Virus record (IMG/VR): IMGVR_UViG_2778261451_000010
Source: a virus
Taxonomy: Duplodnaviria; Heunggongvirae; Uroviricota; Caudoviricetes
Reading direction: 5' to 3' (one strand)
DNA length: 7,746 nucleotides
Below, one piece after another: positions 1-7,746 of this stretch (position 1 is the first letter of the stretch; each line of letters starts with the position of its first letter). The notes below the pieces were generated by a model that saw nothing but the letters and a program-made list of their open reading frames with translations, was not told the DNA's origin and did not search any database. The translations under genes and the position numbers were made by a program.

Positions 1-1170
1 TCACTCCTCATTTTCTTCTGAGCTGTACTCCACATCGGAGAGTTTAACCTCAAGCTCTAAGCCCGTCGTGAAACCGTTATTATTGAGGTTGTGGGTCACC
101 TTGCTGATTAACCATGCCTGCTCGTCTATGACGCGCTTAAAGCCTGACACGCGTACAGGCGTCTCAGGAAATAAATCCGCTCGCCCTAGCGCCAGTGTGA
201 TTGAAAACTCCGCAACGCCTCGCTGCAGTTTATCCCACTTAGCCTGAGCGGCGCGCATTGCCTGTGCCTTTGAGGCATAGACCGTCGTCAGCGCCAGCAC
301 GTTATCGGCTTCACCGGCCATGTACTCACCCTCACGTGCTTCCTGTTCTTTTTTGACCTTTGTCTTTTTGCTGACCGGCTTTGCTTTTGGGTGTTCCAGT
401 GCGCGCAGGTGCTTCTCTTTTGGCTTGCGTTTCAGCGTTACTTTCTGCTTTTGTGGCTTCGGGTCTTTGGTGTGCAACCATTTAGCAGTGACGCCGGTAT
501 AAGCCCCACGGTCGGCAATGGCAAACTGATGACGGTCACCATCACTGCGGGTCAGCGTCATTTGCGGGACGGGTTTGCCGCTGGCCGTCATCGCACTACC
601 GGCTTTCAGAAACAACAGTTTCCCTGCCTTCACCGATACCGTTGCCCCGTTGCGGTCAGCCAGTCGACTCAAAAATACCGCGTCGGATTCCTGCGACTGG
701 TCGATATGCGGTACCGGGATTTTTTTCAGCGATTCCGCAATGTTGGCCGTCAGTTTGTTGCGCTTTGCGATGGTACTGACCAGTTCGCCGATGGTGGTGT
801 CGTGCCATGACTCTTCACGCCTGGAATTTAGCGTGCCGCGAAAGTCCGCGCTGCGCGCCCGGATGGTCAGGGTATCAGGAGCCCCCCGGTGCTCAATCTC
901 ATCGACCGTAAAATCCCCCTTATTCAGCAGCGCCGAACCCTGCCAGCCAAGCCACAACGTCAGCACTGCCCCGCGCAGGGGTAACTCGACTTTCCCATCG
1001 GTGTCATCGAGCTCAATGTCGAGCTGGTCAGCTTCAAAGCCCCTATTGTCCGTCATGGTGAGAGAAATCAGCCGGTCGCTGAAGTTGCTGGTAATGTCCT
1101 GACTGTTCAGCGTCAGCATAAAAGCCGGTGCAAGGCTGGCACCGGCGTCAATTGCCATCCCCGTTATCAT
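1..1170 (-). CDS. D: Tail protein D (P2 gpD-like baseplate hub / late control gene D protein), 389 aa, complete
   Basis: ORF in track; N-terminus MITGMAIDAGASLAPAFMLTLNSQ and overall length match my recollection of P2 gpD; last gene of the module, directly after U with ATGA start/stop overlap at 1167-1170; stop codon occupies window positions 1-3. Confidence 0.88.
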   Translation of the reverse strand: MITGMAIDAGASLAPAFMLTLNSQDITSNFSDRLISLTMTDNRGFEADQLDIELDDTDGKVELPLRGAVLTLWLGWQGSALLNKGDFTVDEIEHRGAPDTLTIRARSADFRGTLNSRREESWHDTTIGELVSTIAKRNKLTANIAESLKKIPVPHIDQSQESDAVFLSRLADRNGATVSVKAGKLLFLKAGSAMTASGKPVPQMTLTRSDGDRHQFAIADRGAYTGVTAKWLHTKDPKPQKQKVTLKRKPKEKHLRALEHPKAKPVSKKTKVKKEQEAREGEYMAGEADNVLALTTVYASKAQAMRAAQAKWDKLQRGVAEFSITLALGRADLFPETPVRVSGFKRVIDEQAWLISKVTHNLNNNGFTTGLELEVKLSDVEYSSEENEE

Positions 1171-1652
1171 GCAGTGAAACCTCCGGGCATACCCTGCAGT
1201 TTATCTGTCAAATTACCGGCAGAGCCGAGAAGCTCACTGGCCTGTTTATTCAGGTCACCAAACATCTCTGTCAGCGATTCATCAACCCGTTTTAGCGAAA
1301 GCGTGAAATCAATCTTTCTGGCCGCACCATCACTGAAAAACTCGGTGCGTGTAGTCGATACTTTATCGACGATATACATCCCGAGGATATTTCCGGTTCC
1401 CTCTATCAACGGCCACGCTCTGCCTTCATTGGCCATCACCTCTACAGCCTTTAGTGAGATCCAACCGCCAGTGATAGCGGGGTATAGCGTACCAGCAAGC
1501 TGTATCGAGGTTTCCCCCTCGCCAAGAAACTGATAGGCAGGTGGTTTACCCACCCGGTCATTGGACACCCAGCGATAATCTTTCGAATGCTGCATCGACT
1601 GGTAAGGCAGGGTGCGAAGTTCAAACACAAACATTCCGAGAGCAAGCATCAT
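1167..1652 (-). CDS. U: Tail protein U (P2 gpU-like tail terminator / tail completion protein), 161 aa
   Basis: ORF in track beginning MMLALGMFVFELRTLPYQSMQHSKDYRW, size about 160 aa, position between T and D as in P2; a GGGGG Shine-Dalgarno lies 5-10 nt upstream of the ATG at 1650-1652. Confidence 0.88.
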   Translation of the reverse strand: MMLALGMFVFELRTLPYQSMQHSKDYRWVSNDRVGKPPAYQFLGEGETSIQLAGTLYPAITGGWISLKAVEVMANEGRAWPLIEGTGNILGMYIVDKVSTTRTEFFSDGAARKIDFTLSLKRVDESLTEMFGDLNKQASELLGSAGNLTDKLQGMPGGFTA

Positions 1653-1665
1653 CGTTTAATCCCCC

Positions 1666-4110
1666 TCAATAGTCGTGGGTCATGTTGGCACGCTGGCGGG
1701 CGCGTTTATCGCGCTCAATCTGTTCGAGCGTGTCGCGTAGTTGTCTGTCAAGCTGATGCCCCGGCGCAACACCTCCCGGCAGATTGATGTTGTATTCGCT
1801 TTTGCTCTGGTCAATGTAAGAGCGCCCCGCCGGTGCGGTAACTGGCTGATAAGCCTGATAGCCGCCATATGTGCTGGTTGCCGGGATGTAGGAATTACCC
1901 TGTGTGGCGGCATTGGTTTTGGCGGCGGTCTGGTCGAGGCTGTCCGACTCTTTGTTGATGATGCCGAGCTTTTCGAGAAGCCAGTCGACACCGCTGCGCA
2001 GCTTGTTAAAAACATTGAGCGGAGCCATCAAGGCAGAGGCCAGTGCCTGACCAAATATGACGCCGACATTTTTGCAGCTATCAAGCGTTTCCTGCGTGGC
2101 CTTAACCGGTGCTATCAGGTCTTTAAACCACTGCCAGACGCCGCGCAGTTTCTCGCCGAGACCATCAAAAATGGGAGCCAGTGGAGCGAACATTTCCCCG
2201 ACTGGGGCAAAGGCACTCATGATGCCCTCAATCACTCCCGAGAAAAATGCGCTGATGGGCTCCCAATATTTACGGATGAGTAGCGCCCCCGCCACAATCG
2301 CCGCACCGACGGCCACTATCGGCCAGGTAATCGCACCGAGCGCTGTCGCAATGGCACTACCGACGACAGTAAAGACCGTACCCAGCACGCCAGCAGCGGC
2401 GATAATGGCATTAATTCCCATGACAACCGGCCACGCAACGAGACCAATGCCGCCGATGATACCAATCAGCGCCAGCGCACCACCGGCAATAATCCCGATA
2501 GTTGTCGTCAGCCCTTTGTTTTTCTGGATCCAGCCGTCGAGCTTCAACACGTATTGTGTGGCGGTTTGGGTGAGTTTGCGCAGCGAGCCCTCTTGCTGGT
2601 CAAAAAGGTCGGTACCGACAGCCTCATAAGCAGACTGGAACTCTTTAAAATCACCGCCGAGGTTGTCCTGCATAATTTTAACAAGCTCTGCGGTTTTTCC
2701 GTCTGAGGCTTTCAGGGTGGAGGTTAGCTGGTCAAGTTTGCCGGTTGAGGCGGCAGTCATGAGCACTGCCGCCGCCGAACTGGCTTCCTCACCGAATATC
2801 GTTTTCATGTATTCGGCTTGTTGACCGGTGCCGAGATTGTTACGCTCAAAACTGGCCTGCATTTCCTTGAGGATGGTAAAAATCGGGCGCGTGTTGCCTT
2901 TACTGTCGGAAGTTTTGACACCCAGCTCCTTAAGCGCATCCCACGCTTTACCGGTCGGAGCCTGCAGGCGGCTTAAAACCGCACGGCTCCCGGTGCCGGC
3001 CATCGAGCCGGTGATTTTGGCGTCATGCAGGGCGCCCACCATTGCGGCAGTTTCTTCAATGCTGACACCGGCATTTTTCGCCACCGGCGCGGCGTATGTC
3101 AGCGCATCGCTCAGCCCGTCGAAATCGGCAGCAGTTTTATTCATCACCGTCGACAGAACGTCGCCAATGTGCGCCACCTTGTCATTGGAAAGCTGAAACG
3201 CAGAGCGCATCCCCATCAGTAATGCGGCGTTTTCTTCCATCGTGCGACGGTTGGCAAGCGCCATATTGAGGGTGACCGGTGTCGTCGCCTGAATGGCTGC
3301 CGCATCGCCACCCCCTTTGGCGATAATAATCTGCGCACTGGCTGCATCATCAGCAGAAGCGGCTGTATTGTCACCGAGCTGGCGTGCCTGTTTGCGTAGC
3401 GCCTCCATTTCTGGTGACTGCTTATCGACCCCGAGCACAGCCTGCAGCTCGGAGTTTTTTTGCGCAAAGTCATAACCGGGCATCAGCAATTTAACCCCGG
3501 CCATCGTTCCCGCTGTCGCAATACCGACCCCGGCAGCACCTGCAGCGGCCATGTTACCGGCAAGTTCCTTACCCGATTTATATCGCTCTTTCACTCGGTT
3601 TAGGTGCGCCTGCTGTGCGCTGACCTTCGCCAATGCTTCGCGCTGCCGGTTGAGCTGCGCCGTCGTCTCGCTGATGCGTGTTTTAAGCCCCCGCTCATCG
3701 TTTGCCAGATTGCGGGTATTGATACCGGCGGCACCCAGCTCGCGTTGCTGGCGTTTAACCGACTCGGTGAGGCTGTTGTATTTAACCTGCAGCCCCTCGG
3801 CGGCACGTTTTGCGGATTCGAGCACCTGTGCCTGCGCTCGCGTCGGGCGCTCAGTATTTTTGAATTGCGTGGCAAGCGCTTCAGCCTCGCGCTTTGCCTT
3901 CTCCAGCGACTGGCCGGTTACGGCCAGTTGAGCGCTGGTTTTGCGAAAGCCGTCGATTTTCGCGGCCTGCCCGTTCAGGTCACGCAGCCCTTTTTGTGTG
4001 TCGCGAATATCGCCCGACAGGGTTTTACTCGCGGTCTGGATGGATTTAAGCGGTCGGGTCGCCTGGTCGACCGCTTTCAGCAAAACCTCAAGTCTCAGGT
4101 TATTACTCAT
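1666..4110 (-). CDS. T: Tail tape measure protein (P2 gpT-like), 814 aa
   Basis: 814-aa ORF; long alpha-helical, Ala/Gln/Arg/Lys-rich N-terminal region, a central block of Gly/Ala/Ile-rich hydrophobic helices (..TTIGIIAGGALALIGIIGGIGLVAWPVVMGINAIIAAAGVLG..), and position immediately downstream of E/E'; start ATG 4108-4110 overlaps the E' stop. Confidence 0.92.
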   Translation of the reverse strand: MSNNLRLEVLLKAVDQATRPLKSIQTASKTLSGDIRDTQKGLRDLNGQAAKIDGFRKTSAQLAVTGQSLEKAKREAEALATQFKNTERPTRAQAQVLESAKRAAEGLQVKYNSLTESVKRQQRELGAAGINTRNLANDERGLKTRISETTAQLNRQREALAKVSAQQAHLNRVKERYKSGKELAGNMAAAGAAGVGIATAGTMAGVKLLMPGYDFAQKNSELQAVLGVDKQSPEMEALRKQARQLGDNTAASADDAASAQIIIAKGGGDAAAIQATTPVTLNMALANRRTMEENAALLMGMRSAFQLSNDKVAHIGDVLSTVMNKTAADFDGLSDALTYAAPVAKNAGVSIEETAAMVGALHDAKITGSMAGTGSRAVLSRLQAPTGKAWDALKELGVKTSDSKGNTRPIFTILKEMQASFERNNLGTGQQAEYMKTIFGEEASSAAAVLMTAASTGKLDQLTSTLKASDGKTAELVKIMQDNLGGDFKEFQSAYEAVGTDLFDQQEGSLRKLTQTATQYVLKLDGWIQKNKGLTTTIGIIAGGALALIGIIGGIGLVAWPVVMGINAIIAAAGVLGTVFTVVGSAIATALGAITWPIVAVGAAIVAGALLIRKYWEPISAFFSGVIEGIMSAFAPVGEMFAPLAPIFDGLGEKLRGVWQWFKDLIAPVKATQETLDSCKNVGVIFGQALASALMAPLNVFNKLRSGVDWLLEKLGIINKESDSLDQTAAKTNAATQGNSYIPATSTYGGYQAYQPVTAPAGRSYIDQSKSEYNINLPGGVAPGHQLDRQLRDTLEQIERDKRARQRANMTHDY

Positions 4111-4590
4111 TGTGGTGTCCGCTACGCTGCAGCGCCTTTTCGCGCCATGTGATGAGCTCGGTCAGGCTCAGGGAATAGAGCTCTGATGGCGACCAGTGGA
4201 ATATCACTGCAATATCCGCCATCAGGTCATCGGTCGACAGGTCGGGCGGAAAATCTACTCCGCCGAAGCCGGTGACAAAAAACCAATCACCTTAGCGGCC
4301 AGCGAAAGCATATCGGGCAGGTTCATCGCGGTTAGCTCCTGCGTGGTGAGCGCGGGATAGGTCATGCGGGGCAGCACTTTAATCAGCGCATCGACCTCGG
4401 ACTGCGCCACCGCCGCCAGACTGACACCGCGCAGGGTACCGGCGTTCGGCTCAATCAGGGTGACTTTATCAATCGTCTGACCGGCGCGCTTAATCGGCTT
4501 GTCGAGGGTCACGACGTTCGGGTTTACGGTGTCAATTTCATTGCCAGCCGTATCAACAAATTCAGCGGTTTTACGTGGTGCTTTTGCCAT
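4103..4590 (-). CDS. E+E': Tail assembly chaperone E+E' produced by programmed -1 ribosomal frameshift at T_TTT_TTG (plus-strand coordinates 4276-4282); predicted 162 aa
   Basis: By hand translation, the -1 frame after the heptamer is open for 57 codons (VTGFGGVDFPPDLSTDDLMADIAVIFHWSPSELYSLSLTELITWREKALQRSGHHNE) and ends at TAA 4103-4105, 2 nt before the T start codon. This is the conserved chaperone/chaperone-extension arrangement upstream of tape measure genes (lambda G/GT, P2 E/E+E'). Confidence 0.78.
4255..4590 (-). CDS. E: Tail assembly chaperone E (P2 gpE-like), 111 aa, in-frame product
   Basis: ORF between the tube gene and tape measure gene; contains the slippery heptamer near its 3' end; position and size are typical of the tail chaperone upstream of the tape measure gene. 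Confidence 0.8.
   Translation of the reverse strand: MAKAPRKTAEFVDTAGNEIDTVNPNVVTLDKPIKRAGQTIDKVTLIEPNAGTLRGVSLAAVAQSEVDALIKVLPRMTYPALTTQELTAMNLPDMLSLAAKVIGFLSPASAE
4276..4282 (-). promoter_or_regulatory. Slippery heptamer T_TTT_TTG for the -1 programmed frameshift (reads caaaaaa on the plus strand)
   Basis: Zero-frame codons GGT TTT TTG give X_XXY_YYZ geometry; the -1 frame is open downstream to a stop overlapping the T start. Confidence 0.75.
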
Positions 4591-4610
4591 GATGTTTTTC
4601 TCTGCTCTGA

Positions 4611-4645
4611 AAGGGGATTAATAACCGGCCAGCCATGCTGACCGG
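4611..4645 (-). terminator. Candidate partial intrinsic terminator / attenuator hairpin directly after the FII stop codon
   Basis: Minus-strand RNA CCGGUCAGC-AUG-GCUGGCCGG forms a 9-bp GC-rich stem (one G.U pair) followed by UUAUUAAUCCCCUUUC. The U tract is interrupted, so at best a leaky terminator that would lower expression of genes downstream of the abundant tube protein. Confidence 0.3.
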
Positions 4646-4653
4646 TCATGGAA

Positions 4654-5172
4654 TTACAGCCCGATTGCGCGGCGGTGCTGTTCCAGACGGTCGACGCCGT
4701 TCACCTTCTCGACCATGTTGACGGTGTCGATTTCGATGACGTCGCTACCATCAATCGTCAGGCGGTAATAGGTGCAGACCGTCGACAGTTTGGTCGAGGT
4801 GTTTTCACCCTGCTTATTTTCGCCGCCGTCGATTTCTTTATGACGGCCACGCATGACCACCTCGACCGCGTTGATTTCGCCGGTGTCGTCGCGCTGGTAG
4901 GATCCAGCAAAACGCAGCGGCACAGCGTCAGCACCCGGCGCGGCGTACTGCGCCCACAGAGCCACATCAGGCTGGCCACCGACAGACCACTCGACGGTTA
5001 ACGCATCATCGTCGAGACCGAGGTCAATCGCCGCCGCGCCATTCATGCCGCCGCCGCGATAGTTTTCGAGTTTGCGGGTCAGCTTCGGCAGCGTCACGGA
5101 TTCAACAACGCCCATATAGCTAAGGCCGTCGTTAAACATGTTCAGATATTTGAGTTTGCGGGGTAGTGCCAT
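4654..5172 (-). CDS. FII: Tail tube protein FII (P2 gpFII-like), 172 aa
   Basis: ORF beginning MALPRKLKYLNMFNDGLSYMGVVESVTLPKLTRKLENYRGGGMNGAAAIDLGLDD and ending VNGVDRLEQHRRAIGL, matching my recollection of P2 FII; sits directly downstream of the sheath gene. Confidence 0.93.
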   Translation of the reverse strand: MALPRKLKYLNMFNDGLSYMGVVESVTLPKLTRKLENYRGGGMNGAAAIDLGLDDDALTVEWSVGGQPDVALWAQYAAPGADAVPLRFAGSYQRDDTGEINAVEVVMRGRHKEIDGGENKQGENTSTKLSTVCTYYRLTIDGSDVIEIDTVNMVEKVNGVDRLEQHRRAIGL

Positions 5173-5187
5173 GTTGTTTCAGGCTCC

Positions 5188-6366
5188 TTAGCTGTTGACC
5201 GATTCGGCCAGATTCACCAGATATTTATCGGTGATACGCTGGCGCAGGGTCAGGCTTTCCAGTGGTGGAACCGGCGTATAGTCGTAGTCGATATACAGTT
5301 TCCCGGCCTTGAGGGTTTCCTTGTCATTCGATTCCTCGTCGAACCAGCATTCACCGTCCACGATGTAGCCATTTGATTTCAGCTCGCGGAATTTGGCATT
5401 AATGCCGTCGACAATGTCACGGATGAGCGATGCGGTAATGGGCTTATCGACCGCCCACATGTGAGCCTCGGCCATCGTGTCGGCCAGCACCTGCGCGGTG
5501 CGGGTGTAGTTCTCAAACAGGAAAAGCGGGTCATCAGAGCAGGTGCGGTTACCCCAAAAGCGGAAACCATCTTTGCGCACCAGCGTCGTGACCCCGGCCT
5601 CGTTGAGCAGGTCAGCATCGGTACCAGATGCCTGCAAATCCCAAAACACTGAGGCGCTGATGCCGGTGACACCCTGCACGCCGACGTTAGACAGGGTTTT
5701 ATGCCAGCCGACGGTCTGGTCGATGTAGGCGCGCAGGCCGAGTGCGCGCGCAGTGGCGTAGGCTGTTGCAGTGGCGTTCGCGGTGGTGTCCCATGCGAGG
5801 AAATCAGGCCAGATAAGCATCAGTTCGCGCTGGCTGAAATTCTCGCGATAGGCCATCGCCTCGGAAATAGTCTTACAGCCCCATGCACTGACATAGCCAA
5901 AGGCGCGCAGGCTGATACAGACCGACGCAAGTGCGACTGCGACCTCTTTGGTATCGAGCCCCGGCACGCCGAGAATGCGCGGCTTAACGCCGGTGACCGC
6001 TTCGGCAGTCAACAGCGCCTTGATACCGGTGTATTTACCGTTCTCATCCGTGCCGCCGATGATATTTGAAATGGTCTGCGCTTCCGCGTCTTCTCCGGTA
6101 CCTTCGGCAACACGCACGACAACGGTGACGGGCTTTGACTGGTCGGCGATGGCCTGCAGGGAGGCAGACAGCGTGCCTTTTTTACCGGCTTTCGCAATGG
6201 CGCTCTGCACATTGGTAATCAGTACCGGCTCGTTGAGGGGGAATGTCGCGGCATCCGCATCGCTGGCCGTGCAGACCATGCCGACAATTGCGGTTGCAAC
6301 AGTGGAAATGACGCGGGTGCCGTCGTTAATCTCAAGCACCTGCACGCCGTGGTGAAAATCACTCAT
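5188..6366 (-). CDS. FI: Tail sheath protein FI (P2 gpFI-like), 392 aa
   Basis: ORF in track. I place the start at ATG 6364-6366 (MSDFHHGVQVLEINDGTRVISTV...), preceded by GGAG 8 nt upstream, rather than at the upstream TTG the track uses; the N-terminus then matches the P2 FI N-terminus as I recall it. Confidence 0.93.
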   Translation of the reverse strand: MSDFHHGVQVLEINDGTRVISTVATAIVGMVCTASDADAATFPLNEPVLITNVQSAIAKAGKKGTLSASLQAIADQSKPVTVVVRVAEGTGEDAEAQTISNIIGGTDENGKYTGIKALLTAEAVTGVKPRILGVPGLDTKEVAVALASVCISLRAFGYVSAWGCKTISEAMAYRENFSQRELMLIWPDFLAWDTTANATATAYATARALGLRAYIDQTVGWHKTLSNVGVQGVTGISASVFWDLQASGTDADLLNEAGVTTLVRKDGFRFWGNRTCSDDPLFLFENYTRTAQVLADTMAEAHMWAVDKPITASLIRDIVDGINAKFRELKSNGYIVDGECWFDEESNDKETLKAGKLYIDYDYTPVPPLESLTLRQRITDKYLVNLAESVNS

Positions 6367-6443
6367 CCGGTTAACTCCGTGGTTAGTGGGCAAGTGTTAT
6401 TGTCCTGGCTGGTCTGTTGAGGGGCTATTTGTCAGTGTTGGGC

Positions 6444-6466
6444 GATGTCTGACACATTGAGACATC
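6444..6466. promoter_or_regulatory. Perfect 7-bp inverted repeat GATGTCT-N9-AGACATC upstream of FI; possible late-promoter activator (Ogr/Delta-type) binding dyad
   Basis: Dyad centre lies about 89 nt upstream of the FI ATG; it contains TGT...ACA half-sites but with N13 spacing in my reading, not the canonical TGT-N12-ACA; no U tract follows, so it is not a terminator. Confidence 0.3.
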
Positions 6467-6707
6467 AGCAACGGATGCGGGAAATTTTTTGTATAGCGTT
6501 GAGATACCCGAGGCGATCCAGTTTCCAGACCACAAGCGTATCGCCCTCTGACAAGGTTCTGAGTAACCTCTTTAGCCCCGGCCAGTCTGATGTTTTGCCG
6601 CTGATTTTATCTTCGAAAATCAGCTCACATCCTGCGCACTCCAGTTCATTTCGCTGTAATGCGGTGTTCTGGTCATTTGTTGATACACGTACATAACCGA
6701 TAAACAT
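6465..6707 (-). pseudogene. Truncated serine recombinase (Hin/Gin/Pin/Cin-family DNA invertase), N-terminal catalytic fragment only
   Basis: MFIGYVRVSTNDQNTALQRNELECAGCELIFEDKISGKTSDWPGLKRLLRTLSEGDTLVVWKLDRLG matches the invertase N-terminus including the catalytic Ser in the RVST motif; homology stops after residue 67 and the ORF ends 13 codons later (YLNAIQKISRIRC*). Only about 100 bp remain before FI, so the E-helix and C-terminal HTH DNA-binding domain are absent. Confidence 0.8.
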
Positions 6708-6761
6708 GAGAAATAACCCGGTAAAAAGTCGGGATCATGCCAGCTGAACGGAATATCTGCA

Positions 6762-6787
6762 TTTTCTAAAAGGTTGGTTTGGGAGAA
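6762..6787. promoter_or_regulatory. Candidate Hin/Gin-type inversion crossover site (hix/gix-like, 12-2-12 bp)
   Basis: Minus-strand reading TTCTCCCAAACC-AA-CCTTTTAGAAAA matches hixL (TTCTTGAAAACC AA ...) at 9 of 12 in the left half with the AA core; the plus-strand right half GGTTTGGGAGAA matches the gix right half GGTTTTGGATAA at 10 of 12. It lies about 55 bp upstream of the invertase start and at the 5' boundary of the plus-strand fibre-tip reading frame. Reference sites are recalled from memory. Confidence 0.45.
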
Positions 6788-7117
6788 GCCAGATATGTCA
6801 TTCAGCGAGGAGCTAATGCCAATGGTGCATGGATACGCTGGTCAGATGGTGCAATAGAAGTATTTGGAACCGGTGGATCTAATGATAATGGACTGGCTAA
6901 AGTTGTTTACCCAATTGCACTGCCTAAACTTTCACGTTTTATCAGTATCGCGGAAAGAATAAGAACGGATTACGAGAGCACACCTAATAATGTTCACGTT
7001 TCAATGATCGTGGATGATCAGGTAACAAATACCGGCTTTTATGCCCGCTGCCAGATGTACGACGGCAGACCATCATCAAATGCTTTTTCCTGGAGGGTTT
7101 ATTGTGCGCCTGTTTAA
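6779..7117 (+). CDS. Alternative tail-fibre C-terminal tip cassette (Sv'/stfE-like variable receptor-binding domain); has no independent start in its current orientation
   Basis: The frame opens at 6770 right after a TAA inside the candidate crossover site; the sequence ..GAWIRWSDGAIEVFGTGG..VVYPIALP..TGFYAR..FSWRVYC.. follows the pattern of phage tail-fibre C-terminal tip domains as I recall it; opposite strand to the tail operon and AT-richer than flanking genes. Confidence 0.55.
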   Translation: MGEARYVIQRGANANGAWIRWSDGAIEVFGTGGSNDNGLAKVVYPIALPKLSRFISIAERIRTDYESTPNNVHVSMIVDDQVTNTGFYARCQMYDGRPSSNAFSWRVYCAPV

Positions 7118-7301
7118 TCCAGTTACTTTGACTGAAGTAATCCCCGGTCTTCATGACGTGACCGGGGCTATTGAATTACCGGAGGACAACTGGTTTTTTA
7201 CTATGACAGAAATTCCTCAGGGCATGGAGCTAACAATTAATGAGAAAGGCGAACCAATACTAATTGAGGTTAATCAGTCTCAGGGAATACAGGCCAAATA
7301 A
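7104..7301 (+). CDS. Short ORF (about 65 aa) downstream of the alternative fibre tip; possible remnant or minimal form of an alternative tail fibre assembly protein (U'/tfa-like)
   Basis: GTG start at 7104 with GGAGG 7 nt upstream, overlapping the fibre-tip stop by 14 nt (operon-like coupling); it terminates inside the 3' end of the convergent Tfa gene. Function is assigned by position only; I see no recognisable conserved Tfa C-terminal motif. Confidence 0.3.
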   Translation: MRLFNPVTLTEVIPGLHDVTGAIELPEDNWFFTMTEIPQGMELTINEKGEPILIEVNQSQGIQAK

Positions 7302-7746
7302 TATCAGGCGCGGTGCTGGTATCTGTTGCCGTCACCGCGTCAGTGTAATCCAGCACAGCGTTAAGCCGGGTTGTTTCTGCCTGCGTCAGTTTCCGCCCGG
7401 CCTGTAATTTCAGCTGAATCAGACTAATGGAAGCCATTGCTGCATCAATCAGTGACTGACGCTGTGCTTCTGCCGCTTCTACTGCGGCACCGTGTTGTGC
7501 CTCAGTATCCGTCACCCATTTCTCACCATCCCATTTATCGTATGGCGTTAATGGGGCGATAGTGGTTGTATTATCAGGGTAATTACCCGGAGCTGTGATT
7601 TCTTTTGATTCTCCTGTTGCGGTGCTAAAGACGATTTCACCGCGATGGTCTGGCACATATTCCCATGAGTTAAAATCTGCAGAACGGCAGATTGCATAAC
7701 CAGCTTTGTATGCGCCTGGAGCATCTAAACAGGAACATGCCGGAAT
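7270..7746 (-). CDS. Tail fibre assembly protein (lambda Tfa / P2 gpG / Mu U family), 5'-partial; the N-terminus lies beyond the window end
   Basis: Conserved motifs SWEYVPDHRGEIVF and the C-terminal ..RLNAVLDYTDAVTATDTSTAPDIIWPVFPE resemble lambda Tfa (..SWHLVEDHRGKTVY.. / ..RVDTSTAPDIEWP..). The track starts the ORF at GTG 7656, but by hand translation the frame stays open to position 7746 and the DHRG motif normally sits about 60-70 residues into Tfa proteins. Confidence 0.85.
   Translation of the reverse strand: MPACSCLDAPGAYKAGYAICRSADFNSWEYVPDHRGEIVFSTATGESKEITAPGNYPDNTTTIAPLTPYDKWDGEKWVTDTEAQHGAAVEAAEAQRQSLIDAAMASISLIQLKLQAGRKLTQAETTRLNAVLDYTDAVTATDTSTAPDIIWPVFPETD

Follow-up and report, generated by a model that had tools for sequence, protein, structure and literature searches.

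Invertible tail-fibre switches of the kind known from the G segment of phage Mu, the C segment of phage P1 and the P segment of e14 form a well-known class. Mu and P1 invert their segments with the functional serine invertases Gin and Cin, which act on 26-bp sites with a 2-bp core, one of the sites lying within the open reading frame (ORF) of the fibre. In this family the enhancer is part of the coding sequence of the invertase gene, towards its 5' end. In e14, a lambdoid cryptic prophage of E. coli K-12 that encodes the invertase PinE, the P segment is bordered by the repeats TTGGTTTGGGAGAAGG / CCTTCTCCCAAACCAA and can also be inverted by PinQ, the recombinase of another prophage (PMC12529663). 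Housing of such an inversion in a P2-like prophage is already known from enteropathogenic E. coli (PMC4272514), and surroundings free of recombinase genes have been noted earlier for invertible regions (PMC9881135). Here we analyse a switch of this class at the right end of a 7,746-nucleotide stretch of viral DNA (Caudoviricetes; IMG/VR record IMGVR_UViG_2778261451_000010), which as a whole is called the window in the following. Our reading, to which we assign a probability of roughly 0.85, is that the locus is an invertible tail-fibre switch of the e14 P-segment/Mu G-segment type in a P2-like (Peduovirus) E. coli prophage, in which the prophage's own invertase is dead while the switch is intact and most likely inverted in trans.

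At 100% identity the window matches part of a P2-like prophage in the chromosome of E. coli EC6622 (NZ_CP096587.1), where the prophage adjoins rplS. Window positions are obtained from those of the EC6622 locus, here L001, by subtracting 5607, and positions past the end of the window are given as window-equivalents. According to its PGAP annotation L001 has the tail-module order of P2-like (Peduovirus) phages, D-U-T-E/E'-FII-FI, followed by the fibre genes H/G and then by I-J-W-V. The minus strand of window 1-6393 carries the late-control D, U, tape-measure, E/E', tube (FII) and sheath (FI) genes, and the switch region separates the sheath gene FI from the fibre genes (H). When followed leftwards from the window end it consists of a tail-fibre assembly (Tfa) gene (minus strand), an opposed alternative tip with an ORF of 65 aa (plus strand), a 26-bp site and an invertase remnant (minus strand). 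The first-pass annotation of the window had described this layout as that of the Mu G, P1 C and e14 P segments, and all of the elements it named are present at or near the positions given for them.

Of the known systems e14 resembles the locus in its repeats, in the constant N-terminus of the fibre, in the two opposed cassettes of a tip and a Tfa or Tfa-like gene and in the adjoining invertase; tfaE/pinE is even the annotation given to several DNA sequences closely related to the segment of the window. The differences are that the host element is P2-like here rather than lambdoid, that the segment measures 1564 bp compared with 1797 bp in e14, and that at the present locus the invertase is internally deleted and the stored cassette ends with the 65-aa Tfa-like ORF. 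With Mu and P1 the locus shares the invertase subfamily, the 26-bp sites with their 2-bp core and the placement of one site within the fibre ORF, whereas the invertases of these phages are functional and neither their fibres nor their cassettes show a sequence relationship to the tip stored here. The same order of sheath gene, invertase (-), stored tip (+), small ORF (+), Tfa gene (-), fibre gene (-), gpI and gpJ is found in Peduovirus S164, which however encodes an intact recombinase of 199 aa where the window has only a remnant. The same segment, 96.6% identical over 1.84 kb, also occurs in strain FEX669 (L002 5640-8123), there with an intact invertase of 186 aa and within a Mu-like prophage (baseplate J/gp47, gp46, DNA circularisation protein). 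Judged from these two prophages, the switch module as a whole is evidently passed between phages with unrelated types of tail.

Two crossover sites in inverted orientation bracket the 1564 bp of the segment. The invertase-proximal site 1, of the hix/gix/pix type, occupies window 6762-6787. Its 26 bp read TTTTCTAAAAGG TT GGTTTGGGAGAA on the plus strand, with the core at 6774-6775, and TTCTCCCAAACC AA CCTTTTAGAAAA on the minus strand. That a crossover site was retained had been claimed from the window alone, together with the advice to look for its partner past position 7746. This partner, site 2, does exist: it reads TTCTCCCAAACC AA GGTTTTTAAGAA and lies at L001 13935-13960 (window-equivalent 8328-8353), about 580 bp beyond the window and inside the fibre gene, at approximately codons 199-207 of 357 aa. 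Both sites have a conserved half-site and the AA/TT core in common, such that the pair consists of two inverted sites of about 26 bp with an identical central dinucleotide; in total the inverted repeats share only about 14-21 bp. Compared with the e14 P-segment repeats they match at 15/16 and 16/16 positions, site 1 having 15/16 of TTGGTTTGGGAGAAGG.

The prophage's own invertase is dead. An ORF at 6465-6707 (minus strand) encodes 80 aa, of which only residues 1-67 are invertase-like. These correspond to a 5' remnant of the gene at 6508-6707 (minus strand), which comprises codons 1-67 with the catalytic serine in the motif YVRVSTNDQ, while the rest of the ORF runs out of frame to a stop at 6465. 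The Pfam Resolvase domain (PF00239) covers residues 3-67 only (profile positions 2-76 of 145), PHROG 125 'DNA invertase' covers residues 1-67, and Pfam gave no HTH_7 match to the remnant. For the full-length relative from FEX669, Resolvase was found at 3-135 and HTH_7 at 138-180. Residues 1-68 of the remnant align with residues 1-68 of Gin in the PDB entries 4m6f and 3uj3, and in tblastn comparisons its identity was 76% to Gin of D108 and 81% to the DNA invertase in a record of P1. No complete small serine invertase, with catalytic domain, E helix and C-terminal helix-turn-helix (HTH) domain, adjoins the switch. The earlier statement that the enzyme is down to its first 67 residues, without the dimerisation helix and the HTH domain, thus agrees with the Pfam matches and the alignment.

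The lesion itself is of a different nature than had been assumed: the invertase is decayed as described, but by an internal deletion and not by a truncation of its C-terminal part. DNA alignment to the FEX669 gene places a deletion of 311 bp (columns 301-611 absent) at the junction 6508|6507, and since 311 nt are not a multiple of three the reading frame is shifted. Downstream of the junction a 3' stub of the gene persists at 6425-6507 (minus strand), out of frame, which encodes 'ISTLYKKFPAS...' in another frame; the ORF at 6425-6535 (minus strand) includes STLYKKFP, the counterpart of the C-terminal STLYRKFP in the FEX669 invertase. The PGAP annotation (NCBI) already lists the gene as a pseudogene ('recombinase family protein, incomplete, missing C-terminus'). 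Other carriers of the deletion differ inside the remnant by a 1-nt deletion and a 4-nt duplication, both of which break the frame further, and a functional remnant peptide was rejected because of these changes.

Between site 1 and the Tfa gene the plus strand holds the stored alternative C-terminus of the tail fibre (6779-7117), which is detached from the constant part of the fibre and measures 112 aa as an ORF and about 110 aa after crossover. Its similarity to fibre tips is weak: it matched the C-terminus of PHROG 2557 (E=3e-15) and PHROG tail-fibre families, and Pfam Gp53-like_C with E=0.002, below the Pfam cut-off. When the interval between the two cores was inverted in silico, '...DVLKNLGLGE' of the constant part became joined in frame to 'ARYVIQRG...CAPV' of the stored tip, which resulted in an uninterrupted fibre of 316 aa followed by the 65-aa ORF. 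Inversion thus exchanges the C-terminus of the fibre in frame, from a site within the fibre ORF. The predicted inverted junction was found in nature, in E. coli ESBLEC_MG48, at 98.4% nucleotide identity, where the product is annotated as a phage tail protein of 316 aa (WP_101169350.1). With the profile matches, the in-frame fusion and the ESBLEC_MG48 gene, the claim that an alternative, fibre-tip-like cassette had been retained stands. By analogy with Mu, P1 and e14, inversion would swap the C-terminal third of the fibre and so its receptor specificity.

Searching the deletion allele with 327 nt spanning the junction (at least 98.2% identity) in 5426 complete E. coli genomes returned 35 genomes. 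For the comparison of sites and segments 15 carrier loci were fetched. Site 1 was identical in 15/15 of these loci and site 2 was present in 14/15, one of them having a single substitution. Such a recurrence of both 26-bp sites in 14 of 15 related loci is far beyond chance. The remaining locus, that of TW10598, kept site 1 and lost site 2 in a rearranged prophage.

Two sets of sister strains among the carriers contain the segment in both orientations. The prophages of EC1 and DETEC-S565 have left and right flanks of 4381 and 2014 nt, respectively, that are 100% identical to those of KE40, while the 1931 bp from core to core are 100% identical only as the reverse complement. Likewise, the prophage of strain 222 agrees with those of 2779, 98192 and 98224 over flanks of 3000 and 2000 nt, and the 1540-bp segment in between is 100% identical only as the reverse complement. 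In ESBLEC_MG48 it is the window's own type of segment that is inverted, beside the same deletion junction in the invertase gene plus a 4-nt duplication. Because both strain sets are exact reverse complements with the same deletion allele, we conclude that site-specific inversion took place after the loss of the invertase. On sequence evidence, therefore, sister prophages still flip the invertase-less segment, and the switch has not been frozen. The first-pass annotation had expected a segment frozen in its present orientation, which is not supported, given that prophages with the same deletion that are otherwise 100% identical are seen in both orientations. By extension from these relatives, the segment may at present flip in EC6622 itself as well.

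Two other origins of the observed orientations have to be weighed here. Homologous recombination or cassette exchange between co-resident prophages could produce both orientations, which would then be uninformative about invertase activity. The region does get reshuffled, as segment lengths of 1450-1982 bp and several combinations of tip and Tfa gene occur beside identical sites. Nevertheless, the whole core-to-core interval is a perfect reverse complement in both pairs, with zero substitutions in 1931 and 1540 bp and 100% identical flanks, and repeats of about 14-21 bp are short for RecA-mediated inversion, yet a substrate of Din-family invertases. Inversion by RecA was rejected on the exact endpoints and the zero substitutions, and an origin by exchange is in our view highly improbable. 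The orientation differences could also be assembly artefacts, or mixed populations that assemblers resolved arbitrarily: invertible segments are commonly heterogeneous within cultures (PMC4272514) and an assembler gives one state. A mixed population, however, itself needs ongoing inversion and so supports an active switch, and a mis-assembly would not end exactly at the crossover cores in two unrelated genome sets from different laboratories. With the same exact endpoints and absent substitutions the artefact was rejected; we give it next to no credence.

Taken together, the following mechanism would account for the locus. Two inverted 26-bp sites, one adjoining the invertase gene and the other inside the fibre gene, bracket the 1564-bp segment such that inversion exchanges the two opposed cassettes and thereby changes the C-terminal third of the fibre. 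The cis invertase has been lost by the frameshifting 311-bp deletion, leaving intact the sites with matching AA/TT cores and the in-frame alternative tip, and the 5' part of the gene, the place of the cis-acting Fis enhancer in this family, has been retained. The inversion itself is most likely carried out in trans, by serine invertases whose genes lie at other places in the host. As for the enzyme that flips it, we infer that in EC6622 this would be the full-length PinR (99% identical to PinQ) and/or at least one further Gin/Pin-like locus.

Candidate enzymes were counted with chimeric BLAST queries, in which an anchor unique to the carriers was joined to a test fragment and the matching places were counted per chromosome. 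EC6622 has one further Gin/Pin-like locus, which matches both the N-terminal part and the deleted part of the invertase gene (2 and 3 places in the two queries), and two places of the PinQ/PinR type (4 places in that query). All strains of both inversion sets have one PinQ/PinR-type place each. A query composed of the present remnant and part of pinQ matched in 4583 of the 5426 complete E. coli genomes. Of the two PinQ/PinR-type places in EC6622 one was located by synteny, the pinR gene at 2547509-2548099 within a Rac-like remnant; its product of 196 aa has Resolvase and HTH_7 domains and is identical to PinQ of K-12 at 194/196 residues. The reservation of the first-pass annotation, that a related invertase might be encoded elsewhere in the genome, therefore applies. 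At its usual site in EC6622, e14 with pinE was not found, the icd region being intact with no prophage there, and e14 was rejected as the identity of the second Gin/Pin-like locus for this reason.

Switches operated by a recombinase that is encoded elsewhere in the genome have precedents in the action of PinQ on e14 and in Hin and Fin of Salmonella, which Kutsukake et al. reportedly described as cross-acting invertases. As a rule those systems either also retain the cis enzyme or lack it through experimental removal, whereas the present lineage, a natural one of 35 genomes, is without it and nevertheless shows inversion.

Some further observations were made on the invertases of E. coli. In NZ_CP095856.1 (486592-487441) and in 18 similar records, pinR stands beside a second recombinase gene that resembles the N-terminal part of Gin/Pin, next to a tail fibre assembly gene; these E. 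coli records thus hold serine invertases of two different subfamilies at one Rac-like locus. In the Rac-like remnant of EC6622 an IS1 lies just beyond tfaR (L021 28827-29524, i.e. EC6622 2548826-2549523), followed by a DUF4055 pseudogene as the next coding sequence (CDS). The annotation lists no stf fibre gene at the pinR locus of EC6622, which seemingly holds an invertase without a fibre substrate of its own.

Several points weigh against a switch that is intact and inverted in trans. The orientation evidence comes from sister prophages, from which flipping in EC6622 itself is extrapolated. The Gin/Pin-like second locus of EC6622 is known only as a count of BLAST places. By the same counts, the chromosome of ESBLEC_MG48 has no other invertase-like place, so that its inversion would either predate the present state or have used an enzyme from a plasmid or a phage. 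With 65 aa, the product of the Tfa-like ORF may be too small to serve the alternative tip as a chaperone, in which case the stored form would be non-functional even if expressed. Finally, the P segment of K-12 was locked once pinE had been deleted, in spite of the pinQ gene on the chromosome (PMC12529663). Given this lock, native levels of PinQ or PinR may be insufficient; alternatively, the K-12 deletion may have removed the enhancer.

The K-12 result also speaks for a switch that is locked in EC6622 in its present orientation for want of a cis invertase, the alternative tip being a permanently silent relic. Moreover, the cis invertase is certainly non-functional, and the extra frameshifts of other carriers imply that there is no selection on its coding capacity. 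Such a lock is at odds with two independent exact inversions between otherwise identical prophages that carry the same dead invertase, and with the inverted segment of the window's type beside the same deletion junction in ESBLEC_MG48. EC6622 has in addition an intact PinR and another invertase-like locus, and its sites are identical to those of the relatives that flip. We therefore regard a permanent lock as unlikely and keep to an intact switch that is most likely served in trans.

A question that bears on how such a switch could operate is why part of the dead gene persists. The predicted Fis-dependent recombinational enhancer lies at about 6624-6689 and would correspond to codons 7-28 of the invertase gene, an assignment presumed by comparison with the hin sequence. 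This stretch begins 85 nt from the centre of site 1 and is wholly inside the retained remnant. Its function would be that of the known enhancers by analogy: Din-family inversion needs a cis-acting, Fis-bound enhancer, which in hin is located near the 5' end of the coding sequence, at a distance of about 100 bp from the site (PMC2724282, PMC3798978). Window 6588-6732 is invariant in 10 deletion carriers, and all frameshifting indels lie 3' of it and of codon 40. Among these carriers the proportion of variable columns was 0.7-2.9% in the remnant region (6394-6760), compared with 8.6% in the sheath gene and 6.0% in the tube gene (4654-6393).

These data would fit a tentative interpretation, for which we consider the chances to be somewhat less than even: the first ~200 bp of the dead gene are kept for the enhancer, and the locus is an 'orphan' switch that is run wholly by the invertases of co-resident cryptic prophages (PinR/PinQ, Pin-like). 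It fits because indels occur only 3' of codon 40, because 6588-6732 is invariant and because the pinE deletion of K-12 locks the P segment. The low diversity of the remnant is equally explained by a recent origin or spread of the allele, the sample of 10 carriers being small.

The two cassettes of the segment are opposed and differ in composition. The expressed one combines a collar-domain tip with a Tfa protein of 201 aa, whose gene is annotated by PGAP at L001 12877-13482 (minus strand; window 7270-7746, continuing to window-equivalent 7875) and is in frame to the window end. Its product matches Caudo_TAP (PF02413, E=1e-31) and phrog_105 (E=5e-96). The stored cassette combines the gp53-like tip with the 65-aa Tfa-like ORF. 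When 50,697 phage records were searched with this tip by tblastn, no more than three weak matches of 32-36% identity came up, so that the phage database tells little about its receptor. One of the three is in Peduovirus S164, which has a related tip, 36% identical, in the same position.

The 65-aa ORF (7104-7301, plus strand), downstream of the stored tip, is similar to Tfa proteins in their N-terminal half and in a few residues at their very end. It matches phrog_5400 at positions 1-66 of 145 only and aligns at 23-31% identity with the N-terminal parts of Tfa proteins of 131-150 aa, without the conserved C-terminal 'VDTSxAPDIEWP' block. From these alignments it looks like an internally shortened Tfa. 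An identical protein (WP_001440573.1) adjoins the intact invertase in FEX669, and in ESBLEC_MG48 the ORF comes after the expressed alternative fibre.

Across the carriers (L001, L003-L012, L015-L018) the segment measures between 1450 and 1982 bp, and different tips are accompanied by Tfa-type proteins of 65, 88, 131, 144-150 and 197-203 aa. This varied content beside identical sites and the same remnant points to frequent cassette exchange besides inversion. Some copies have decayed further. In TW10598 (L003 5855-6347) the constant part of the fibre gene is missing together with all that lies between it and the terminase gene, and of site 2 the inner half-site TTCTCCCAAAGC is followed by unrelated sequence; this copy is unable to invert. 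Another form of decay is seen in ECE313 (L011 5956-6936), where the fibre gene is split into a gp53-like CDS of 137 aa and a pseudogenised constant part.

A scan of 6350-7746 for promoters and terminators gave no more of them than in shuffled sequence. In the tail module, two ORFs for tail assembly that lie upstream of the tape-measure gene (4255-4590 and 4103-4240, minus strand) correspond to the E / E+E' pair of P2. The slippery run 'GGTTTTTTG' is found at about 4275-4283, near the end of the first E/E' ORF, which we take to be the place of the -1 programmed frameshift of P2; PGAP treats the second ORF as a CDS of its own ('GpE family').

For the current understanding of Din-family inversion these results change nothing. 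The population evidence of an invertase-less allele that persists in several lineages and still inverts is mildly new. Annotators should not conclude from a pseudogenised invertase beside an invertible fibre segment that the switch is dead: the sites, and probably the enhancer, are decisive for switching, and E. coli genomes usually have other serine invertases. The locus also offers a natural deletion series on whether the 5' part of the invertase gene is kept for the enhancer. With 35 genomes and several lineages it illustrates, in nature, a prophage that would owe its receptor-binding variation to the enzymes of other prophages. If the orphan interpretation were true, the receptor choice of one prophage would be controlled by the enzyme of another.

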